A DNA stretch of 64,000 bases from IMG/VR virus record IMGVR_UViG_3300020120_000082, positions 74,809 through 138,808 of that record; one strand, 5' to 3'. The DNA comes from a virus (taxonomy: Duplodnaviria; Caudoviricetes). The translations under genes and the position numbers were made by a program. This document shows, piece after piece, positions 2,653 to 63,967 of this stretch. Under the pieces are notes generated by a model. That model made no database searches. It was not told where the DNA came from and worked only from the letters and a program-made list of their open reading frames with translations. The first letter of the stretch is position 1, and each line of letters opens with the position of its first letter.

Positions 2653-3501
2653 TCGACCACTCCTGTTGGGTAATTTCTAGTGTATGTTTCCAGTCTCGAA
2701 TTGCCGCACCACCCCCGGTTTGGGAACTGAACCGCCAGCAAGACACCCTGGCATCGACAATTTTGTTTTCCCAGGATTTCTCCAGTGTGTCTTTCTCGTC
2801 CTCATCCATCGATGATATCCTCTGCTGGGCCAGAAACTTGAGCCGGTTGTGGCTTGAAAAACGCCTCCGAGATCAGCGGCAGATCCGCCTTTCTGTAGTG
2901 CATGGCCACTTTCTTGGCCAGCTTGCGATCCGGCAATAGGCTGATGTACTTCAGCGTGATCGGCAATGGCGCTCCGCTCAGGAATTCAACCAGTTCGTTG
3001 ACGCTGCACTTCCTGAGCCGCTGATCCAGGCTGGGATCCACTTTCACATGCTTGGTGTCTGGATCCTCCCAGAAACCCATGGCCAAGTCCCATTTCACTC
3101 TGGTTTTAGGGTCTTCGATCTTGGCTCGTATACCCCAGTATTCAGCATAAGTCAGAGTCGCTGGCATGTTGTAATCTTACACCAATCCGCTCCTTGCAGC
3201 AAACTGATCCATGGCCAATTCATTCTCTTCCAGTGGAACATAATCATCGGGAACATCCTCCCATTCCCACTCATCAATGTCGTCTACCGTTGGAAAACCT
3301 TCCCAATTGAAATACACCTCGACATATTCCGGTCCAAGTGGCTCTCGAAACTGATTGTCGCCAAAGACATTATGCGACTCGGGCAAAATCTTGGAAAGCT
3401 TTTCGACAGCCTCTTCTTTGCTCATGGCCAGCACTCTGGCGCAATAGCCCACTGGCCCATTCGTCGAATTGCCAAGCGAAAAGTGATACGACTTCATGCG
3501 C

Positions 3502-4059
3502 CTAGTCATTGATTAGATCCTTTCCCTTGAATGACCACTGATTGAATTTGACATTCCGCGGCTTATGCTTTTTGGCGTATTCATTCCAGAAGATCCTGAA
3601 TTCCTTATCGATTTCATTCATCTTTCGACTATGCAAACTCCAATCCCAATTGAGTTTCTCGCAAGCATCTGACCAGAGCTTGATCCTTGCTTTCAATTCA
3701 TCTGGGCCGACTAATACAACGCAGACGCCCACGTTTCCATCCGGATACATCACCAGGACATCTTTCTTAAGATCGAAAGTCTCTACAAACTTATCAACGC
3801 CATGCTGGATAGTCTCTTCTTCGGTCAGCCAGCCAAAACAAGTTTCCCCGGCTTTGTGCTTTTCCGAATCCCAACCTAACTTGTTGAGAGTGGCAGCATC
3901 TTTTTTGGAAAGCTTGCCGTACACACTTCTGGTTTCTCTTGCTTGATAATCCTGCTCTCCCTTGCGTTTTGGCCGTTCCCACTTCAGTTCCGCATAATAA
4001 TGTTTGGCACCAATAGCTGATGTGCCAATATAGGACCTGATTTCAAGTTCGACAATCAT
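3502..4059 (-). CDS. Hypothetical protein
   Basis: 185 aa ORF in operon. Confidence 0.7.
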   Translation of the reverse strand: MIVELEIRSYIGTSAIGAKHYYAELKWERPKRKGEQDYQARETRSVYGKLSKKDAATLNKLGWDSEKHKAGETCFGWLTEEETIQHGVDKFVETFDLKKDVLVMYPDGNVGVCVVLVGPDELKARIKLWSDACEKLNWDWSLHSRKMNEIDKEFRIFWNEYAKKHKPRNVKFNQWSFKGKDLIND

Positions 4060-5217
4060 TGATTACTTGCCCTTTACTAATTTGAACCGACGAAATTGTT
4101 CTCTGGCATCAGCCTCCAGGGCCTTCGTCCAGGTTTCTCCGCGATGTTTCATCTTGCTCCAGACCAGGTAATCCGTTTCTCTATTTTCTCGAACCAGAGT
4201 TTCGACGTAGTTCCAATCATCTGACACCTGTTCCCGTATTCGCAGGGCTCCGTGATATTCTTCCAGCGCGAATTTCAAAACGGTTTCTGGAAACATGCCA
4301 GAATTTGATCTAGCGTCGGCCATGCGTAGAATTGCACCAAACCAGTGCGCTTCATAAGCCATCAGCGCGAATTCTTTTTCAGTGGTTGTCTTCTGAATTG
4401 GCATGTTTGGCCTACGCGCACCACTCAACGCTGACAATACTGGTAATGTCCAGCGGCTCTATTTCAATCCACATGGTTTTATTCTTTAGTCTCTTCAGAT
4501 ATTCGATAGAGCGATGCTGTAAGTATGGATTTCCATCGCTCTCGTGGTAATCATGCCCAGCGCACCAACGTAAGCCTGCCAAAAGTCTCTCCTTGGCTTC
4601 GTTTTCGTCAGCCCCATAGACTAATTCGTTCACCGGGATGTAGTGTTCGCCTCGTATCCGGACAATGAATGGTTTCGAATTGCCTGGATCTTTCAGGTCC
4701 GGAAAAACATCTATCCTGGTACTGCCATTGCGCCAGTATGTGATGCTGTGATCTCCAAGATCCTGGATATGCTCACGCTCGGTTATTTTCATTGAACACC
4801 CAGTCGTTATCAGCAATCAGATCCGGCCTAAATTCTTTCAGAACCAACGCCAGAATACGTTTGCCCATATCTATGCACTCTTCCTCGGATGGCCATAAGG
4901 CTGGTGTGAACCCATCCGGTTCCTGGCTGTCATACAGAAAGATCAGGGAAGCGATCTGCTCTTCAACTGAAACCTGATGATCTGGATCAAGCCAGTCTTT
5001 GTAGCTCATGGTTTCCTCATACTTTCTGCTCTGATTTGGAGCACTTCACGCTCAGTAAATCCAGCCCGCTCATTGCGCTCGTCGCACAAACGCCTGGCTA
5101 GTTCCCAGTCTTTGCCCCAGCGCCAATCTGTTTTCCAGTAGCCTGTCTCTCCGCGCTTGGCAATGCAGGGAATGATCTGGCCATCTTCATCAACTGCCGT
5201 TTCCATCACAAAAACAA

Positions 5218-56258: not shown

Positions 56259-56768
56259 ATGTGGGTTAGCGTGGATGTTGAAGCGGATGGGCCGGTTCCG
56301 GGCCTGTACAGCATGATTGAGATTGGCGCGGTAGCGATTATGCCAGGCCTGACTCGGACATTTGGAGCCAAGCTGGCACCGATCAGCGATCAGTGGCAAC
56401 CCGAAGCTCTGGCTGTAACGGGCTACACGCGGGCTGATACGGAGAGCTTTCCGGATCCCAAGAAAAGCATAATGGGGTTTGATAGCTGGCTTTATACGCT
56501 GCCCAAGGATGGACGTTTGATCTTTCTGAGCGACAACGCCGGTTTCGACTGGCAGTTCATAAACTACTATTTCTGGAAGTTTCTGGGACGCAACCCATTC
56601 GGGCATAGTAGCAACAACCTGCGCAACATCTATAATGGCATGAAGATGAGCAGTTTCGAGTCGTTCAGGGGCCTGCGTGATACGCCGCACACGCACGATC
56701 CGGTCGACGATGCTATGGGCAATGCCCAGGCATTTCAGAAGATGGTAGAGATGGGGTATAAGATCTGA
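56259..56768 (+). CDS. DEDDh 3'-5' exonuclease
   Basis: VDVEADG...NAGFDW...HDPVDDA. Confidence 0.85.
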   Translation: MWVSVDVEADGPVPGLYSMIEIGAVAIMPGLTRTFGAKLAPISDQWQPEALAVTGYTRADTESFPDPKKSIMGFDSWLYTLPKDGRLIFLSDNAGFDWQFINYYFWKFLGRNPFGHSSNNLRNIYNGMKMSSFESFRGLRDTPHTHDPVDDAMGNAQAFQKMVEMGYKI

Positions 56769-57193: not shown

Positions 57194-57246
57194 GGGCCGG
57201 TTTAGGAAAGCCCGCGGGAATTGGGGTTCGAGTCCCCACCGGTCCA
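57194..57246 (+). ncRNA. 53-nt tRNA-Ala-like mini RNA (acceptor with G3-U70 + T-arm only)
   Basis: GGGCCGG/CCGGTCC-A; TGGGG-TTCGAGT-CCCCA; no canonical D or anticodon arm. Confidence 0.6.
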
Positions 57247-57342: not shown

Positions 57343-57408
57343 AACTGGGTAGCTCAGTCTGGTAGAGCGGCCAAGGGCATGTCGCAGGTTCAAATCCTGC
57401 CCCAGTTA
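57343..57408 (+). ncRNA. tRNA-like gene lacking a full anticodon arm
   Basis: AACTGGG/CCCAGTT, perfect D-arm and T-arm; anticodon arm reduced to GCC-AAG-GGC. Confidence 0.7.
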
Positions 57409-57881: not shown

Positions 57882-58411
57882 TTAAGTTCTGGATCAAGTT
57901 CCTGTTCGCCATCCTGAACCTGATCCTATTCTGGCAGTTGTGGCCATGGTTTCTATGGCTCTATTATGGCGGTTGGGGAATAACGTAATGGCAAAGTGGC
58001 TGGTGAGCATTTACCTGGGGATTGATGGCATGGATAAGATGCAGGATCCAACCATCAACTATGTTTCCAGGGAAGTATTCGATAGGACAAAGATTGGTTC
58101 ACTTATTCGGATCAGCGCCGGTTTGCGCAAGGTCAAGAAGATCAAGATGAGCCCATTTGGAAAGCCCTGGCACAAGCTGTTAACCTGCGAAGTGATCAAT
58201 GAGTAGCTTTGTGTCAGAGTTTTCAAATACGATTGAAATTCCAGATGATCTCATGGAAGAAATCCATGCAGACATGATGTGCCGCTCGAGCTGGCTGGAG
58301 TCTATACTTGGCTTGACAGATCGCTTGGGCTTGACCCATTCGATCTTTTCGCAGATACCGACCGAGAATCTAGTGTCGGTTAGCTGGCAGGAAATACAAG
58401 GAGACTAGGCA

Positions 58412-58636
58412 ATGGGAGTCATGAAGATTATCGATCGGACCGGAGATACCGTAGTTGAGTGGGATATTCGCAACGAACAGGAAGTGGCCGTGGCACGATC
58501 TGAATTCGAGCGTCTGCTGACGGAAGGCCGAACAGCTTATTGATACAGTGGCGATAGCCGGGTGGGTGATGTTATGGACACTTTTGATCCGGCTGTTGAG
58601 CAGATTGTTTCGCGCCCGCAGGTCGTCGGAGGCTGA
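58412..58636 (+). pseudogene. Ubiquitin-like (Gly-Gly-terminated) small protein, copy 1, with internal TGA at 58541-58543
   Basis: MGVMKIIDRTGDTVVEWD...FERL...TAY*YSG...FDPAVEQIVSRPQVVGG; 74 codons like paralog 59207; absent from the ORF track. Confidence 0.75.
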
Positions 58637-58637
58637 G

Positions 58638-59195
58638 TTGGAAAGCAGCCAGTCGTTCTGTAGCCGTTTTCTGCGTCGACTGACTGAACTTGAAGGTGCA
58701 TATCACGCGACGGAGTGGTACGATCATTCCCCGGTAGCTGGCGAATTCGGAAGGCTGGATGTAGAGCCGGTGGCGACCTCCGGCTCTATGTCTGTTTTAT
58801 ATGTTGGGTACACTCCAAGGTCTTTCGCCATGGCTTATTCCGGCGCTTGGACCAGCGGATCTTCACCTGCCGATCCGGAAGAAGCTGAAAGGCAAAGAAA
58901 GGCAAACGATAAATCCAAGGATCTTTTCTTTGAGTTCCTTGACGAGAGCCAAAAGACAGAGTTTGAAGAGAATGGCTATGTGACGGTTGTTTCACAGCAG
59001 AAGAATTTGTATCGAATAAGCGAAGGCAGAACGTTCAACGTTCTAGGACTGAACCGTGCTTTGAAGGCGGTGGCAAAGTATTGCCTGCAAACGATCGGTT
59101 ACGTACCGATTTATGATCAGATGCTGGTCCAAAAACTTATGCTGGAAAACGAAGAAGACAGGTTTTTGGAAAAAGCCAATAGAACGTCAGTCTAG
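58638..59195 (+). CDS. Cys-containing partner of the Ubl-like protein, copy 1
   Basis: TTG start after GGAGG; C-terminal domain paralogous to 59433..60065. Confidence 0.75.
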   Translation: MESSQSFCSRFLRRLTELEGAYHATEWYDHSPVAGEFGRLDVEPVATSGSMSVLYVGYTPRSFAMAYSGAWTSGSSPADPEEAERQRKANDKSKDLFFEFLDESQKTEFEENGYVTVVSQQKNLYRISEGRTFNVLGLNRALKAVAKYCLQTIGYVPIYDQMLVQKLMLENEEDRFLEKANRTSV

Positions 59196-59206
59196 GAGAA
59201 TAGGCA

Positions 59207-59431
59207 ATGGGAAGACTACGCGTGATGGATGGCAGCGGCGATTACAAGGCGACCTGGGATCCGGGGAAGCCGGAAGAGGTTGAAGCGGCCAAGATTGTTT
59301 TCGAACGTCTGATCGGTAAGAAGTACAAGGCTTTTGGCGTGAAGGAAAAGGGCGAGAAGGGAAATCAGATCTTCGCTTTCGATCCGAGCCTGTCCCAGGC
59401 GATTCTCGTTCCCCCAGCCGCGGGAGGCTGA
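59207..59431 (+). CDS. Ubiquitin-like (Gly-Gly-terminated) small protein, copy 2
   Basis: 74 aa, beta-grasp-like strand/helix pattern, ends ILVPPAAGG. Confidence 0.75.
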   Translation: MGRLRVMDGSGDYKATWDPGKPEEVEAAKIVFERLIGKKYKAFGVKEKGEKGNQIFAFDPSLSQAILVPPAAGG

Positions 59432-59432
59432 A

Positions 59433-60065
59433 GTGGCAGCGACATCATTTCGGCAAGACTCAGGAACAACCTGGCGGTACTGGACAAGCGGAACGTCCAG
59501 TACCGCTGCGACTGTTAGCATTTCTCGCGTCGGAGATCCCTGGGCTTATTGGATTGGGGGCGCGTCCGGCTCAAGCACCACGGCAGAAGTTGGCACCGCC
59601 AATGCGTCTGATGCTTTCACTTATTGGTGCTGGATGGCTAATGGTTCAATCATGCCTGTTCCGGCTGATCTTTATCAGCCAAAGATGCGCGAATTGACGC
59701 CAGAAGAAGTGCTGAAGATTGAGGAAGATAGAAAGAATTACCTGGCCAAGCGCGAGGAAGAAGAGCGCCAGCGCCAGTTGGCGAATCAAACGGCGGAAGA
59801 ACTGCTGGCGGAGTTCCTGGATGCCATGCAAGCCAAGCAGTGGAAAGAAGACCTGTCATTTATGGTCGAGTCCGAAACCGGTCGGAAGTTTCGCATTCGC
59901 CACCGCGGGAAAGTAGAAGAGCTTGATGAAGCTGGCAAGGCTGTTGGTTATCACTGCATTCACATTCCGGGTGTGCCAGCAGCCGATGAAGCCTTGGGCA
60001 GAATGCTGCTGTTGCGGAACTGCGAAGAGGAGTTCAGGCGCATTGCCAACTTTACCCGTGCCTGA
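59433..60065 (+). CDS. Cys-containing partner of the Ubl-like protein, copy 2
   Basis: S/T/W-rich N-terminus, coiled coil, EFLD...RI...KAV..HC...GVP..D...AN. Confidence 0.75.
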   Translation: MAATSFRQDSGTTWRYWTSGTSSTAATVSISRVGDPWAYWIGGASGSSTTAEVGTANASDAFTYWCWMANGSIMPVPADLYQPKMRELTPEEVLKIEEDRKNYLAKREEEERQRQLANQTAEELLAEFLDAMQAKQWKEDLSFMVESETGRKFRIRHRGKVEELDEAGKAVGYHCIHIPGVPAADEALGRMLLLRNCEEEFRRIANFTRA

Positions 60066-60486
60066 AACGATCCAGACGGAATTCGGGGACGTCAAGATCA
60101 TTCGTCGACCGGATGGCCTGGAAGACTGGAAAGCCAGTTTGTTTATCCGGGCCATGGGCAAGCCGACGATGACCCAGGCGTCTAAGAATACCAAGAAAGC
60201 GGCAGTTGAATACCTGACCATTTTCTGTCCCAAGATACTGGCTGGTTTCAATCGAGCAGCCAAGTTTGTATGCTGCGAGTCGATTGTTATCACGGCTTAT
60301 TTTGAGACCAACAACAACAACCTGCTGGGCTTGCGCTATGACGGTGGCAAGCCAGACGCCACCAATATTCAGAAGGGCATCGAGGATGCCCTTCTGATTG
60401 ACGACAGCCGCAATGATGCCGCCTGTTCCCGGCGCTGGGGCAGTCGTGATCGGATTGACATTCAGTTATTTGGTGTACGATACTAG
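60058..60486 (+). CDS. rusA: RusA-like Holliday junction resolvase
   Basis: KPDATNIQKGIEDAL..DD motif. Confidence 0.75.
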   Translation: MPETIQTEFGDVKIIRRPDGLEDWKASLFIRAMGKPTMTQASKNTKKAAVEYLTIFCPKILAGFNRAAKFVCCESIVITAYFETNNNNLLGLRYDGGKPDATNIQKGIEDALLIDDSRNDAACSRRWGSRDRIDIQLFGVRY

Positions 60487-62311: not shown

Positions 62312-63967
62312 ATGTGGGGCGGTAACTGGGCCAGGGCCTGCGCTGGCCTGGTGATTTCTGACCGGCTCCTGTTTCGCAGGCACTTCTTCGGAGATCAGCT
62401 TTCGCTGGCGCTCAGCAAAGAGCAAAAGCTGATGATCTGCGATGCTTCGCAGCGCGTTTTGCTTTGTACAGCCCGCAAAATCGGAAAAACATTGATCATC
62501 GAGGCCGAAGTTATCCAGACGGGCCTGCTGCACAAATCCAAGGGGGATGGCGTAGACGAAGCGCTCTTGTGGACGCCTAACGACGTTCACATGACCCCCT
62601 TGATCGATCGTATCTTCTCCAGAGTCGAGCGAAACCCCATTTTTTACGGTTGTGTGCGTGAAAAACGCCGCGGTGACAATACCATTATCGAGTTCAAGGG
62701 CGGTTTGCGCTGGTATGCTCGCATTGAGGGCCTGTCCGGGAAAGACACCAACGTTGTAGGCTTACGCGCCACTATTCTAATTGGCGACGAGCAGGCGTTT
62801 GGACAGGAAGCGGTTTATAAGTCATTGATCATGTCGGCCATGCCGGATGCTAGATGGATTATGGCTGGTGTGCCCAATGGCGTGCGCCGTTCACCGTTCT
62901 ACCTGCTGGACCAAACCAAGCAGGGCGACAAGTGGTCACGACACAAGTATTCGTCTTACATCAACCCCATTTTCCAGTATGAAGGTGCTAAGGAGCGCCT
63001 GATTGAAGACTACGGCGGCGAGAGAACCCATGGTTACATTACGCAGGTTCTGGGCGAATGGGGCGAAGAGATGTTTACCAGCTTTCCGCCTGGTTCGATT
63101 GCTATTGGAAACCAGCCCTTCTTCAACCGGGAGATGGACAGCTTTCTGAAGACGGATCTCGATACGCTGCCGCTGAAGGTAGGCGTATCGTCGATCAAGT
63201 GCAAGAGGTTTGTTCTGTCACTGGACTACGGATTCTCCCCTGATCCGTCTATTTTGTGGGGTTTTTACTCGGATGATGACGAATCTAGGGTCTGGAAACA
63301 GTATTTGCGCCTGAAAATGAGCCGAGTACCGCAGCCCTATCAACTAGCCATCATCCAGCACATCAAAGATGTGGTTTTCAAGGGCCAATTTATGGGTTTT
63401 GCCTCCGACCATCTGGCAACAGTCCAGTCTTTGCGTGAAAGAGTCCCAGCCAGCATGGCTGAACTGATCCTGCATGCCAGCCCAGGCGGATCAACCACGT
63501 TTGATATGAAGGTCATCCGGGATCAGGAACCCAACCTGTACCGGATGCTGTCCGAAGCCGATCGCGACAAAGATAAAGTCAACCTGCACAACAAGCAGCT
63601 TTGGACGGAGTGGTTTCGTGGTTGGATGATCAATGCCACCCAGGGGCTGGAATCAACTCAGCTTTGGTTGGCGGATATTCCGGATGTCGAAAACGAGATT
63701 TCGTCTACGACTGAGCGTAAAAGCGGCGCGTATGTAGTCTATTTTGGGCCGCGAGATCCAAACGACTCCAAGCGCCAGGTAGACCACGACACCGACGCGG
63801 GTCGTTTTGTAGCCATGGTTATTCATCAGGCCATCCAGCACCGAGACAGGGAACACGCCAACGATGAGATCATTCAGTCTATGGGCTGGGCCGGAGATGA
63901 GCCTGAAGGCGGCTGGAACCCCGGCTGGGAAACACCTCCCTCCCCTGCACTGCCATACTACAACTGA
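62312..63967 (+). CDS. terL: Terminase large subunit
   Basis: EQK Q-motif, Walker A ARKIGKT, Walker B ILIGDE, GVPNG, RNase H-like LDYGFSPDP, C-terminal DHDTDA. Confidence 0.88.
   Translation: MWGGNWARACAGLVISDRLLFRRHFFGDQLSLALSKEQKLMICDASQRVLLCTARKIGKTLIIEAEVIQTGLLHKSKGDGVDEALLWTPNDVHMTPLIDRIFSRVERNPIFYGCVREKRRGDNTIIEFKGGLRWYARIEGLSGKDTNVVGLRATILIGDEQAFGQEAVYKSLIMSAMPDARWIMAGVPNGVRRSPFYLLDQTKQGDKWSRHKYSSYINPIFQYEGAKERLIEDYGGERTHGYITQVLGEWGEEMFTSFPPGSIAIGNQPFFNREMDSFLKTDLDTLPLKVGVSSIKCKRFVLSLDYGFSPDPSILWGFYSDDDESRVWKQYLRLKMSRVPQPYQLAIIQHIKDVVFKGQFMGFASDHLATVQSLRERVPASMAELILHASPGGSTTFDMKVIRDQEPNLYRMLSEADRDKDKVNLHNKQLWTEWFRGWMINATQGLESTQLWLADIPDVENEISSTTERKSGAYVVYFGPRDPNDSKRQVDHDTDAGRFVAMVIHQAIQHRDREHANDEIIQSMGWAGDEPEGGWNPGWETPPSPALPYYN

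Follow-up and report, generated by a model that had tools for sequence, protein, structure and literature searches.

Two adjacent A/B gene pairs

The window (the whole 64,000-nucleotide stretch analysed, positions 74,809 to 138,808 of the tailed-phage record IMGVR_UViG_3300020120_000082) carries two consecutive pairs of small genes, here called A and B, with the following features.

58399..58411, + strand: ribosome-binding region of A1, AGGAGACTAGGCA ahead of the ATG
58412..58636, + strand: gene A copy 1 (A1), a 74-codon frame with a predicted beta-grasp-like product, end PQVVGG, TGA at codon 44
58541..58543, + strand: in-frame TGA of A1, GGA (Gly) in two near-identical metagenome contigs
58638..59195, + strand: gene B copy 1 (B1), 185 aa, TTG start, 1 nt past the A1 stop
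59082..59084, + strand: invariant Cys codon of B1 (residue 149), TGC
59194..59206, + strand: ribosome-binding region of A2, AGGAGAATAGGCA ahead of the ATG
59207..59431, + strand: gene A copy 2 (A2), 74 aa, intact, predicted beta-grasp-like product, end PPAAGG
59433..60065, + strand: gene B copy 2 (B2), 210 aa, GTG start, 1 nt past the A2 stop
59745..60062, + strand: C-terminal domain of B2 (residues 105–210), predicted UBC/RWD-like alpha-beta4-alpha topology, AF2 pLDDT 96.9
59955..59957, + strand: invariant Cys175 codon of B2, TGC, at the end of strand 4 and inside the predicted interface with the A GG tail

An earlier note, made from the sequence alone, had described two adjacent gene pairs here, with B starting 1 nt beyond the stop of A and A frames ending in Gly-Gly. 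All four open reading frames are confirmed on the + strand, and both the spacing and the Gly-Gly end are true of either copy. The A/B junction reads GGAGGCTGA-N-NTG in both, which places GGAGGCTGA five bases upstream of the B start, and an alignment of the two copies shows the ribosome-binding regions of A1 and A2 to be nearly identical. B1, whose limits are identical in a JGI gene call on another metagenome contig, consists of a divergent N-terminus with few WxxW motifs and a C-terminal Cys domain (residues 84–185). In B2 the N-terminus is rich in Thr, Ser and Trp and contains WxxW motifs; a charged helix and the C-terminal Cys domain follow. A programmed +1 frameshift (RF2-like) joining A to B at GGAGGCTGA was considered and ruled out, as the junction sequence varies from locus to locus and the B frame of copy 2 is not open ahead of its start.

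The in-frame TGA and the age of the two copies

Gene A had been taken to span 74 codons in both copies. This stands for A2, which is intact, but the open reading frame of A1 stops after 43 amino acids at a TGA. The same phage is represented by two JGI metagenome contigs (99.93% identity to this record over 5,528 nt; 4 SNPs in 5.5 kb), in which this codon is GGA (Gly), the sole difference inside A1 between them and the record. Recoding of the TGA, be it through code 4 or 25, selenocysteine or a suppressor tRNA, was ruled out: we regard the codon as a nonsense variant or an assembly error because TGA also serves as the normal stop of A1, A2 and B2, because a tRNA search of the window revealed no opal suppressor (it found Val(TAC), Ser(TGA), Ser(CGA), Arg(TCT) and two tRNA-like elements without anticodon), and because the sister contigs read GGA.

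A1 aligns with A2 along the full 74 residues without gaps, at 32% identity (E 1e-15). B1 and B2 have in common a C-terminal domain of ~105 aa, 37% identical (E 5e-14), in which the Cys residues align, and this confirms the earlier description of a common C-terminal domain behind a divergent N-terminus. The label ‘tandem-duplicated’ fares less well: there are indeed two neighbouring copies, but A1 and A2 sit in different clades of the A family tree, each nearer to A proteins of other phages (43–50% identity) than to the other (32%). The two pairs are best read as old paralogues and not as a fresh duplication.

A two-gene module of uncultured tailed phages

Gene-pair linkage, a check that the earlier note had proposed, holds in both directions. 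B directly follows A in every one of the ~40 viral loci fetched through A, with gaps of mostly −11 to +17 nt, and, of the 43 loci fetched through B, 40 have A upstream (36 of 39, plus all four arbitrarily chosen further representatives). The identity matrices of A and B are correlated (Spearman 0.24, a value reached by none of 500 permutations), and in two phage contigs the genes are fused in frame, reading ...PPMQGG-L-M.... These comparisons, drawn from sequence, argue that A and B are inherited together and that B is translationally coupled to A.

Neighbour clustering over ~37 loci found no third conserved neighbour gene, and we take the pair to be a two-gene module, common in uncultured tailed phages. 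It is surrounded by replication and recombination genes, namely those for an RNase T-like exonuclease, RusA, RecA-like, FEN, PolA and SbcC-like proteins. In other loci some of the neighbours are counter-defence-like (AcrVA2-like, NAMPT).

The earlier observation that no E1 or JAB gene is visible was confirmed over a wider scope. Neither a ThiF-type E1 (PF00899) nor a JAB gene occurs in the 138.8-kb record or in four of the five complete phage genomes that carry the pair, and a neighbour search found no ThiF or Prok-JAB gene adjoining it. The sole PF00899 match among the five complete pair-carrying genomes lies 190 kb from the pair.

Searches for known relatives returned little. Against the A and B families, Pfam gave scattered weak unrelated matches only, with no model for the B domain; PHROGs gave weak matches only (E > 0.1), to families of unknown function; PADLOC defence HMMs gave isolated unrelated matches only; and PDB sequences gave nothing relevant. 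No sequence similarity of A or B to known Ubl (ubiquitin-like) or E2 families was found. A tblastn search of 50,697 deposited GenBank phage genomes returned no match to the pair, and no cultured phage carries it. Agrobacterium phage Atu_ph07, one protein of which had come up as a structural match in BFVD, was rejected when the B profile found nothing in its genome; a weak A-profile match there is spurious, the sequence appearing by eye to be that of an unrelated, apparently helical Cys/His-containing protein.

Gene A and its Gly-Gly end

A word-index search with A2 alone returned A2 itself as its sole match; the family as collected has 42 matches, with E down to 1e-35, and members of ~75 aa. 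Among 103 distinct members the C-terminus is GG in 88, AG in 11 and GG with a short extension (GGSR or GGNNGLRC) in two. The chain ends exactly at G-G or A-G in 99 of the 103, and the last Gly is invariant. Almost without exception the C-terminal pattern is a hydrophobic strand followed by P-P-x-x-G-G, and the residues preceding the GG (P-P-M-V) are conserved as amino acids.

The earlier note had itself raised the concern that the GG might be an artefact of the Shine–Dalgarno sequence of B. At 40 junctions, both Gly positions use GGC, GGA, GGG and GGT. GGAGG is spelled at ~10 of the 40 (about a quarter), and many of the junctions (GGCGGC, GGTGGT, GGTGGC) pair poorly with the anti-Shine–Dalgarno. 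Because all four Gly codons occur at both positions, the terminal GG appears to be held by a protein-level constraint and not to be a Shine–Dalgarno by-product.

The AF2 model of A2 (pLDDT 82.5), built on a three-sequence alignment before the deeper A family was collected, places strands at residues 2–6, 13–17, 41–45, 51–55 and 64–68 and a helix at 22–37. This predicted beta-beta-alpha-beta-beta-beta topology has the strand/helix order of a beta-grasp. Structural neighbours of A in Foldseek and VIA are almost all ubiquitin, NEDD8, SUMO, UFM1, PB1, RBD, TtuB, MoaD and BubA, with Mth1743 also among them. The matches are weak (Foldseek E ~0.1; TM 0.34–0.49, about 0.4–0.5; Z at most 4.9), and the structure-search tool itself cautions that a Z under 8 may reflect only a common arrangement. 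The claim that A is a beta-grasp Ubl thus gains from the predicted topology, the mostly Ubl neighbours and the GG end, but is held back by the weak scores and the lack of a Ubl sequence match.

As to MoaD and ThiS, none of 40 A members matched PF02597 (ThiS/MoaD) in Pfam at E <= 0.1, and hhalign of A against five MoaD sequences aligned the last 11 residues only (probability 1.9%). In Burkholderiales MAG genomes with the pair, MoaD ends in AFFPPVTGG, and the A consensus ends in ILVPPMVGG.

Gene B, its cysteine and predicted fold

The C-terminal domain of B (~100 aa) belongs to a large family: the metagenome clusters, defined at 50% identity, contribute 7,507 representatives at E <= 1e-3, of which 4,133 remain at E <= 1e-10. 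Conservation of the Cys, which the earlier note had proposed as a check, was borne out in 247 of 250 domains. Pro182 (246 of 250), Asp185 and Gln133 (240 of 250 each) are nearly as constant, and a His or Gln stands two residues past the Cys, giving the motif C-x-[H/Q]-P ... V-P-x-x-D. The N-terminal region is Lys-poor and Thr/Ser/Trp-rich, holds 2–4 WxxW motifs and differs between copies; a charged helix links it to the Cys domain, the whole protein being ~200 aa long.

The AF2 model of the B2 domain (pLDDT 96.9) has the order H-H-E-E-E-E-H-H-E, that is, a helix, a four-stranded meander and further helices, with the invariant Cys predicted at the end of strand 4. In a whole-PDB VIA search the first five places go to Ubc9 (Z 5.1, rmsd 3.1, 81 residues aligned), three RWD domains (Z 4.7–4.9) and the UEV-like domain of VPS37A (Z 4.2). 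Further rows include FANCL, the Vps23 UEV, UBE2F (Z 3.2), E2S (Z 3.1) and a second UEV (Z 3.2), while full-length canonical E2 chains reach only Z 2.3–2.8. In the pdb_via search a phage P1 head chain came first, at Z 5.3, and Foldseek against the PDB gave no match to the domain.

The HPN motif is absent from B, and 65 B members matched none of the Pfam E2 families (UQ_con, Prok-E2) at E <= 0.1. Between the Cys and the helix that follows there are about seven residues, a loop much shorter than in E2 enzymes: in Ubc9 the corresponding stretch has ~15 residues, inside a loop of roughly 30. Weakly, then, the B domain looks most like the UBC/RWD/UEV folds in its predicted structure. For the proposal that B is E2-like, these best matches and the invariant Cys speak in favour, and a Z of at most 5.3, the missing HPN and the short Cys loop speak against.

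The predicted A–B complex

Co-modelling of A with B gave a complex score of 0.72, compared with 0.01 for the best of three controls. Of 80 solved complexes 58 come up to this mark, as do two of 110 mismatched pairs, a calibration that is rough here as our own alignments were used. Contacts agree between runs to at least 92%, and the partner's pLDDT is at least 84 (84–86 for A). In the predicted interface, residues 175–182, 185–197, 201–206 and 113–128 of B meet residues 5, 7–12, 41–54, 66 and 68–74 of A, so that a face of the A sheet packs on the helix after the B Cys and the A GG tail lies along the Cys loop. The earlier note had asked whether the GG tail would lie at the Cys: it is predicted to run on the Cys loop, in a model that passed its controls. 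As read from the contact list alone, the predicted arrangement resembles the ‘closed’ form of E2~ubiquitin. All of the points at which the earlier idea could have failed in silico came out in its favour.

Comparison with known systems

Among known systems, Type I Bub (6E/DUF6527) operons combine a BubAB Ubl–E2 fusion with a BubCD peptidase–E1; they need their own E1 and JAB peptidase, work through oxyesters and have no E3, the E2 being thought to choose the targets (PMC11601596). Like Bub, the phage pair has the Ubl first and the E2-like protein second, sometimes as one polypeptide exposing the C-terminal Gly, and the natural A–B fusions follow the same order as the BubAB fusion. The structure searches with A also brought up BubA (9eav_C, Z 3.3), and an E3 is absent here too. 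Unlike Bub, the pair comes without E1 or JAB, has an invariant Cys at the nucleophile position and is borne by phages, not by a bacterial defence island; sequence similarity and a PADLOC match are both absent.

Bil and CBASS type II Cap2/Cap3 likewise join a beta-grasp or C-terminal-Gly modifier to an E2-type Cys carrier in a setting of phage–bacterium conflict. Both belong to operons for host defence that include an E1 (or E1–E2 fusion) and a JAB peptidase, whereas the phage pair is viral, consists of two genes, sits among replication and recombination genes and matches none of their HMMs. With eukaryotic E2 (UBC), RWD and UEV domains B shares, in its predicted structure, an N-terminal helix, a four-stranded antiparallel meander and then helices. 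It differs from E2 in that its domain has ~100 aa as opposed to ~150, lacks HPN and holds its Cys in a loop of seven residues where strand 4 ends.

In the manner of MoaD and ThiS, A is a predicted beta-grasp protein of ~80 aa with a hydrophobic strand-P-P-x-x-G-G tail and a partner gene directly downstream. It departs from them in lacking a PF02597 match, B is neither MoaE- nor ThiG-like, and no adenylyltransferase is encoded. Finally, phages lambda and T1 also encode a ubiquitin-like domain whose C-terminal Gly is conserved, in tail assembly protein I. There a Gly-rich linker and a further domain come after the Ubl, the gene belongs to the tail module, and a JAB plus NlpC/P60 protein, gpK, adjoins it (PMC1779556). 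In contrast to gpI, A is free-standing, paired with a Cys domain, outside the structural genes and without a JAB.

What the pair may do

We tentatively favour the reading in which A is a Ubl and B an E2-like Cys carrier, the two forming a candidate protein-tagging system activated by a host enzyme; we think this possible, and somewhat short of probable. First, the C-terminal Gly of A would be activated by an enzyme from outside the module. A host adenylyltransferase of the MoeB/ThiF type seems the likeliest, because the last residues of A mimic the MoaD tail, though the step is pure inference. Second, A would be handed as a thioester to the Cys of B. Finally, it would be delivered to targets chosen by the variable N-terminal region of B, while infection is in its early or replication phase. 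Two pairs in one phage would on this view amount to two separate modifier/carrier sets, the first modifier gene here holding a nonsense codon. The A–B fusions and the GGSR and GGNNGLRC extensions would need a peptidase that is absent from the module.

Stated in full, this reading becomes more doubtful: tailed phages would carry their own minimal ubiquitination system, a Ubl plus a miniature E2-like Cys carrier whose N-terminus selects the targets, and this system would either hijack host MoeB/ThiF or work E1-free, tagging host or phage proteins early in infection. The same doubt covers that fuller version taken jointly with its corollary that in some phages there is more than one modifier/carrier set, or a single modifier served by several carriers.

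The most serious alternative, which we consider unlikely but far from negligible, is that A and B form a non-covalent obligate heterodimer, in which a Ubl subunit is held by a catalytically inert UBC-fold domain of the RWD, UEV or Mms2 kind. The WxxW region of B or the surface of the complex would then be the business end, the Cys would be structural or redox-sensing, the GG tail would be kept since only small residues fit the groove, and the complex could inhibit or decoy host Ubl defences (Bil, Bub, CBASS Cap2). It weighs against the favoured reading that RWD and UEV domains, which are non-catalytic binders, match B as well as E2 does. The heterodimer also suits the missing HPN motif and the absence of an encoded E1, while translational coupling and natural fusions fit a 1:1 complex, the complex model (0.72 against 0.01) speaks to binding only and not to chemistry, and counter-defence-like neighbours (AcrVA2-like, NAMPT) occur elsewhere. 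To our knowledge, however, inert UBC-fold domains (RWD, UEV) are without the Cys that B keeps in 247 of 250 domains. For RWD domains its absence is described by Iyer et al. (2006; PMC1779556). Nor would groove fit alone demand that A end exactly at G-G or A-G in 99 of 103 members; modifiers that react at their C-terminus show just this pattern of AG or GG with the last Gly invariant.

A sulfur relay of the MoaD/MoaE or ThiS/ThiG kind strikes us as improbable. Here A would be adenylated and thiocarboxylated by host MoeB/ThiF and a sulfurtransferase, its GG tail would insert into B, and the B Cys would use or pass on the sulfur, for example for nucleic-acid or cofactor modification in the replication module. 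The PPxxGG tail of A is MoaD-like; MoaD, TtuB and Mth1743 are among its structural neighbours; and replication and recombination genes adjoin the pair. The gene order agrees as well, since in the moaD–moaE operon a small GG-protein gene is followed by an overlapping partner gene. Yet the Pfam ThiS/MoaD model matches none of 40 A members, and B, a 100-aa domain without nucleotide-binding features, is unlike MoaE, ThiG, PP-loop ATPases and rhodanese. The long, variable Trp/Thr-rich N-terminus of B has no counterpart in sulfur-transfer enzymes.

More improbable still, B could act on A precursors as a cysteine peptidase or transpeptidase, cutting past the GG and perhaps transferring A without ATP, sortase-style. 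Such an activity would suit the fusions and extensions, the invariant Cys with a His or Gln two residues on, and the absence of an encoded E1. It is hard to reconcile with the 99 of 103 A proteins that already end at Gly, which leaves nothing to cut and no peptide bond as energy supply, and peptidase folds are absent from the structural matches of B. That the A GG is a mere side effect of a GGAGG Shine–Dalgarno for B, with A and B functionally unrelated neighbours, is scarcely credible: both junctions here do read GGAGGCTGA five bases ahead of the B start, and another gene always lies close behind A even where it is not B, but the use of all four Gly codons, the ~10 of 40 junctions that spell GGAGG, the poor anti-Shine–Dalgarno pairing of many others and the conserved P-P-M-V argue against it, while linkage, fusions and the complex model point to a joint function.

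Significance

As far as we know, only the bacterial side of Ubl conjugation in phage–bacterium conflict has been described (Bil, Bub, CBASS Cap2), always with a dedicated E1. The phage A/B pair would be the viral counterpart, made of two genes, with no E1 and no sequence relative in known Ubl or E2 families. Widespread but undescribed, it looks like a stripped-down protein-tagging system of bacterial viruses. The B domain is very common (7,507 clusters), yet Pfam has no model of it, and the 50,697 deposited phage genomes searched gave no match. If the proposed chemistry is true, phages tag proteins with a modifier of their own, B offers a very small E2-type scaffold to study, and whether a host housekeeping sulfur-carrier E1 can be borrowed for protein conjugation becomes a testable question. 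Even if the pair is only a tight complex of a Ubl with a UBC fold, it defines two new protein families, both large, and gives them a clear structural hypothesis.

Genomic setting of the gene pairs

The window forms the last 64 kb of a linear phage record of 138,808 bp, for which CheckV estimates a completeness of 88%, and it carries two consecutive gene pairs within a run of small plus-strand genes. Gene A of each pair encodes a candidate ubiquitin-like (Ubl) protein ending in Gly-Gly, and gene B a partner with a C-terminal Cys domain. The positions that the earlier note had assigned to these four reading frames all proved correct.

Genes in the region of the two pairs
56259-56768, plus strand, RNase T-like exonuclease, first of the named genes before the pairs
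between the exonuclease gene and the tRNA cluster, plus strand, Cys-rich CPCC protein
between the CPCC protein gene and the two gene pairs, tRNA cluster
58412-58636, plus strand, A1
58638-59195, plus strand, B1
59207-59431, plus strand, A2
59433-60065, plus strand, B2
60043-60486, plus strand, RusA-like resolvase, after the pairs
62312-63967, plus strand, 551-aa ORF downstream of the resolvase gene

The 551-aa ORF has no match in Pfam or PHROG; tblastn alone gave a match, a weak one at 23% identity covering 61% of the ORF, to a gene annotated as terminase large subunit in an uncultured mangrove-soil phage. Promoter-like and terminator-like signals were looked for inside the gene pairs, and none was prominent. 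Two tRNA-like elements lie on the plus strand within the tRNA cluster. One (57343-57408) reaches 51 bits with the Rfam tRNA model; its acceptor, D and T arms are normal, but the anticodon arm is reduced to about 3 bp and a 3-nt loop, and ARAGORN makes no call for it. The other (57194-57245) has a 52-nt mascRNA-like mini tRNA shape and scores 26.6 bits, below the gathering score.

Wherever the neighbours of an A-B pair can be named, they are, apart from single cases, DNA replication or recombination genes: the RNase T-like exonuclease and RusA in the window, and RecA-like, 5'-3' exonuclease, family A DNA polymerase and SbcC/Rad50-like ATPase genes in other phages. At single loci (contigs L105, L106) an AcrVA2-like gene or NAD-salvage genes (NAMPT/NAPRTase) lie close to the pair; both gene types are frequently associated with counter-defence. 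The pair lies outside structural modules, a position that sets it apart from the ubiquitin-like gpI/gpK tail assembly system of lambda (PMC1779556).

Relationship of the two copies

A1 and A2 align without gaps over all 74 positions (32% identity, E 1e-15), and B1 and B2 have a C-terminal stretch of about 105 aa in common (37% identity, E 5e-14), the shared domain that the earlier note had already described. The ribosome-binding stretch upstream of A1 is nearly identical to that upstream of A2, and the A/B junction reads GGAGGCTGA-N-NTG in both copies. The 74 codons previously ascribed to both A genes hold for A2; in A1 of the phage record, codon 44 (58541-58543) is an in-frame TGA and the ORF stops after 43 aa. 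An intact 74-aa A1 protein, with Gly at codon 44, is recorded from two further JGI metagenome contigs (L004, L005), whose sole DNA difference from the window within A1 is GGA versus TGA; over 5,528 nt, the longer JGI contig differs from the window at four positions, this one among them. Because both contigs carry GGA, a search of the window found no opal-suppressor tRNA, and TGA is the normal stop in three of the four genes of the two pairs, A1 of the phage record reads as a nonsense variant or assembly error of an otherwise intact gene.

The tandem duplication proposed for this region stands as far as two adjacent pairs are concerned, and is too simple a description otherwise: A1 and A2 fall into separate clades of the A tree (FastTree, midpoint root, short alignment), and both resemble A proteins from other phages more than they resemble each other. 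From these relationships, the tandem arrangement would be either an old duplication or the result of two acquisitions, and it suggests that the two pairs may not be interchangeable.

Two linked protein families

As a word-index query, A2 alone found no homologue. One viral locus with a homologous pair made a three-sequence profile possible, with which 42 A-type proteins (74-120 aa) were recovered. An exhaustive profile search with the C-terminal domain of B yielded 7,507 cluster representatives at E <= 1e-3, of which 4,133 remain at E <= 1e-10. Neither family has a relevant match in Pfam, PHROGs, PADLOC or PDB sequences, and neither was found in 50,697 deposited phage genomes; the pair is carried by uncultured phages of about 30-436 kb, and by contigs that had been binned with MAGs, soil Burkholderiales among them. 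A full-text literature search brought up no account of a phage pair of this kind; journals beyond its coverage may contain one. One A homologue from a JGI record (P0038) is named 'predicted Rdx family selenoprotein' by one source, probably an automatic mis-annotation because the A family lacks a CxxU/CxxC motif.

Linkage is close in both directions. A same-strand B follows every A in the roughly 40 viral loci fetched via A, usually with -11 to +17 nt from the stop of A to the start of B. Conversely, an A lies immediately upstream in 36 of the 39 loci fetched via B (one of the three others ends at the contig end), and four of four further B representatives, chosen arbitrarily, have an upstream A ending in GG. 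A third conserved neighbourhood gene was sought, and none besides A and B emerged. Pairwise identities of A and of B are correlated across loci (Spearman 0.24, reached in 0 of 500 label permutations), which could in part reflect shared ancestry. On this sequence evidence, A and B are two real, large, co-inherited families.

The arrangement varies. In a 436-kb phage, complete with terminal repeats (L024/L055; also L087, L088), two B genes follow a single A and a third B lies on the opposite strand, two full pairs occur in one other phage, and in one phage (L063/L064, 3046-4007) two unrelated small genes separate B from an A ending in APMIGG. In two large phage contigs, L060 (435 kb; 3215-4312) and L061 (231 kb), A and B are fused in frame (...PPMQGG-L-MVM...). 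One more T than usual in the overlapping stop/start region turns the TT that would precede the stop at other junctions into TTT, and this T would account for the fusion. A single ORF of contig L007 (2369-2980), comprising an A domain without GG and only the last third of the B domain, looks like a deletion remnant.

Fold and C-terminus of A

The AlphaFold2 model of A, built from a shallow alignment (pLDDT 82.5), has strands at 2-6 and 13-17, a helix at 22-37 and strands at 41-45, 51-55 and 64-68, which in the model is the element order of the beta-grasp fold anticipated for A. Foldseek against the PDB gave nothing significant; almost all of its top rows are ubiquitin, NEDD8, ISG15, UFM1, PB1, Ras-binding domains and a bacterial multi-ubiquitin protein (E 0.09-0.4, TM 0.34-0.49). 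A Foldseek-independent search reached Z <= 4.9, with mostly Ubl domains plus TtuB, MoaD, SUMO and BubA. Element order and mainly Ubl neighbours support a beta-grasp topology for the predicted structure, with weak scores and low similarity to solved structures.

The chain terminates in GG in 88 and in AG in 11 of 103 distinct A proteins; of the other four, two continue briefly beyond GG (GGSR, GGNNGLRC) and two run on into the B frame as fusions. A 40-sequence alignment shows the final Gly without exception. That GG is an artefact of a Shine-Dalgarno site for B, a refuting condition named in the earlier note, is hardly credible. Across A genes with a close downstream gene, to which the codon test applies and among which every A belongs, GGC, GGA, GGG and GGT are used in comparable numbers at both positions, and GGAGG, next to a variable stop codon of A, occurs at only about a quarter of the A/B junctions. 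Because of this codon use and because the residues preceding GG are conserved at the amino-acid level (hydrophobic strand, P, P/Q, M/I/L, V/A), GG is maintained by selection on the protein rather than on a Shine-Dalgarno site.

Domain structure of B

The C-terminal domain of B, modelled from 65 sequences (pLDDT 96.9), comprises two helices, a meander of four short strands, two helices and a last strand, and has no Foldseek match in the PDB. When all PDB clusters were searched, Ubc9 ranked first (Z 5.1, rmsd 3.1, 81 aligned), followed by three RWD domains (Z 4.9, 4.8, 4.7) and, in fifth place, the UEV-like VPS37A (Z 4.2); by the standard that the tool itself sets, the Z values for this domain, here and below, fall short of proof of kinship. 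Lower rows hold further RWD domains, FANCL, Vps23-UEV, UBE2F and E2S. With VIA-align as a second look, full-length canonical E2 chains reached only Z 2.3-2.8, and the top row was PDB 9ukm chain I (bacteriophage P1 head; Z 5.3, 69 residues aligned). We consider the predicted topology UBC/RWD-like, giving weight to one superfamily filling the top of the list.

The Cys singled out in the earlier note is almost invariant across the family; it lies at the end of strand 4, with the next helix about seven residues on.

Conserved positions in 250 B domains (B2 numbering)
Cys175, 247 domains
Pro182, 246 domains
Asp185, 240 domains
Gln133, 240 domains
residue 177 (Cys + 2), His in 152 and Gln in 58 domains

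The domain contains no HPN motif. Bacterial E2-like families without the classical His, and with a conserved His C-terminal to the Cys, have been described (Iyer et al., 2006; PMC1779556), to which the His after the Cys of B is a parallel, not a sign of membership.

Before the domain, 107 of 144 B homologues have two to four WxxW motifs about 16-25 residues apart. This region is variable, rich in Thr (19%), Ser (10%) and Trp (7.7%), with 0.6% Lys, and is followed by a charged helix; its model is of low confidence (non-partner chain pLDDT 67 in the complex run). The N-terminus of B2 matches the pattern (e.g. window 59433-59700), B1 has a remnant only, and no known counterpart was found. A 397-aa protein of the cultured jumbo phage Atu_ph07 of Agrobacterium (BFVD A0A2L0UZL2; MF403008) matches the B-domain model (TM 0.80 by query, E 0.027) and might represent a very remote B-like domain in a phage that can be cultured; the B sequence profile found nothing in the Atu_ph07 genome.

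Predicted A-B complex

Full-length B2 and A2 were co-folded with a family alignment for each. Their complex scored 0.72, versus 0.01 for the best of three controls. Of 80 solved complexes, 58 attained the mark of the A2-B2 complex, as did 2 of 110 mismatched pairs, counts that are approximate here given our own alignments. Contact agreement among three runs was at least 92%, with partner pLDDT at least 84. In the predicted interface, the sheet face, TGDTK hairpin and whole tail of A (residues 5, 7-12, 41, 43, 48-54, 66, 68-74) meet the Cys loop, following helix and long first helix of B (175-182, 185-197, 201-206, 113-128), the tail of A lying on the Cys loop. The conserved residue 71 of A (consensus Met) occupies a predicted pocket formed by B 176, 178, 189, 190, 193 and 204. 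Judged from the contact list, the arrangement resembles closed E2~ubiquitin, and the model supports, but does not demonstrate, A-B binding.

Possible function and activation

By sequence, the pair lies outside every known family. Among described systems, the bacterial Bub operons come closest; there, Ubl and E2 are synthesized as a single BubAB polypeptide that is cleaved at Gly to separate them (PMC11601596). The L060/L061 fusion has the gene order of BubAB. The phage pair lacks Bub's E1 and peptidase and has no sequence membership in Bub.

We tentatively favour a conjugation system of Ubl and E2-like carrier, at somewhat less than an even chance. Rather unlikely, and the next to be considered, is that the two proteins form a non-covalent Ubl/UBC-fold complex, which might serve as a decoy against Ubl defences of the host; a sulfur relay is improbable, and a peptidase or transpeptidase role for B more improbable still. 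The mechanism we infer for the conjugation system would comprise activation of A by a host E1, loading of A onto the Cys of B, choice of targets by the N-terminus of B and action early in infection or during replication.

The absence of E1 and JAB genes noted earlier for the window extends to the whole phage record, in which neither a ThiF-type E1 nor a Prok-JAB peptidase was found; nor did either turn up in four out of the five complete phage genomes that have terminal repeats and carry the pair. The fifth, the 436-kb phage, has adjacent ThiF-JAB genes about 190 kb from the pair, the only E1/JAB among the five. With no E1 encoded, activation, if A reacts at its C-terminus, would have to be supplied by the host or by some enzyme not recognised as such. 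MoaD genes in the genomes of pair-carrying Burkholderiales MAGs end in AFFPPVTGG, and the A consensus in ILVPPMVGG; hhalign of A against MoaD aligned exactly the last 11 residues and nothing more (probability 1.9%), a local likeness and no proof. Because of this resemblance between the two tails, host MoeB is a concrete candidate activator of A.
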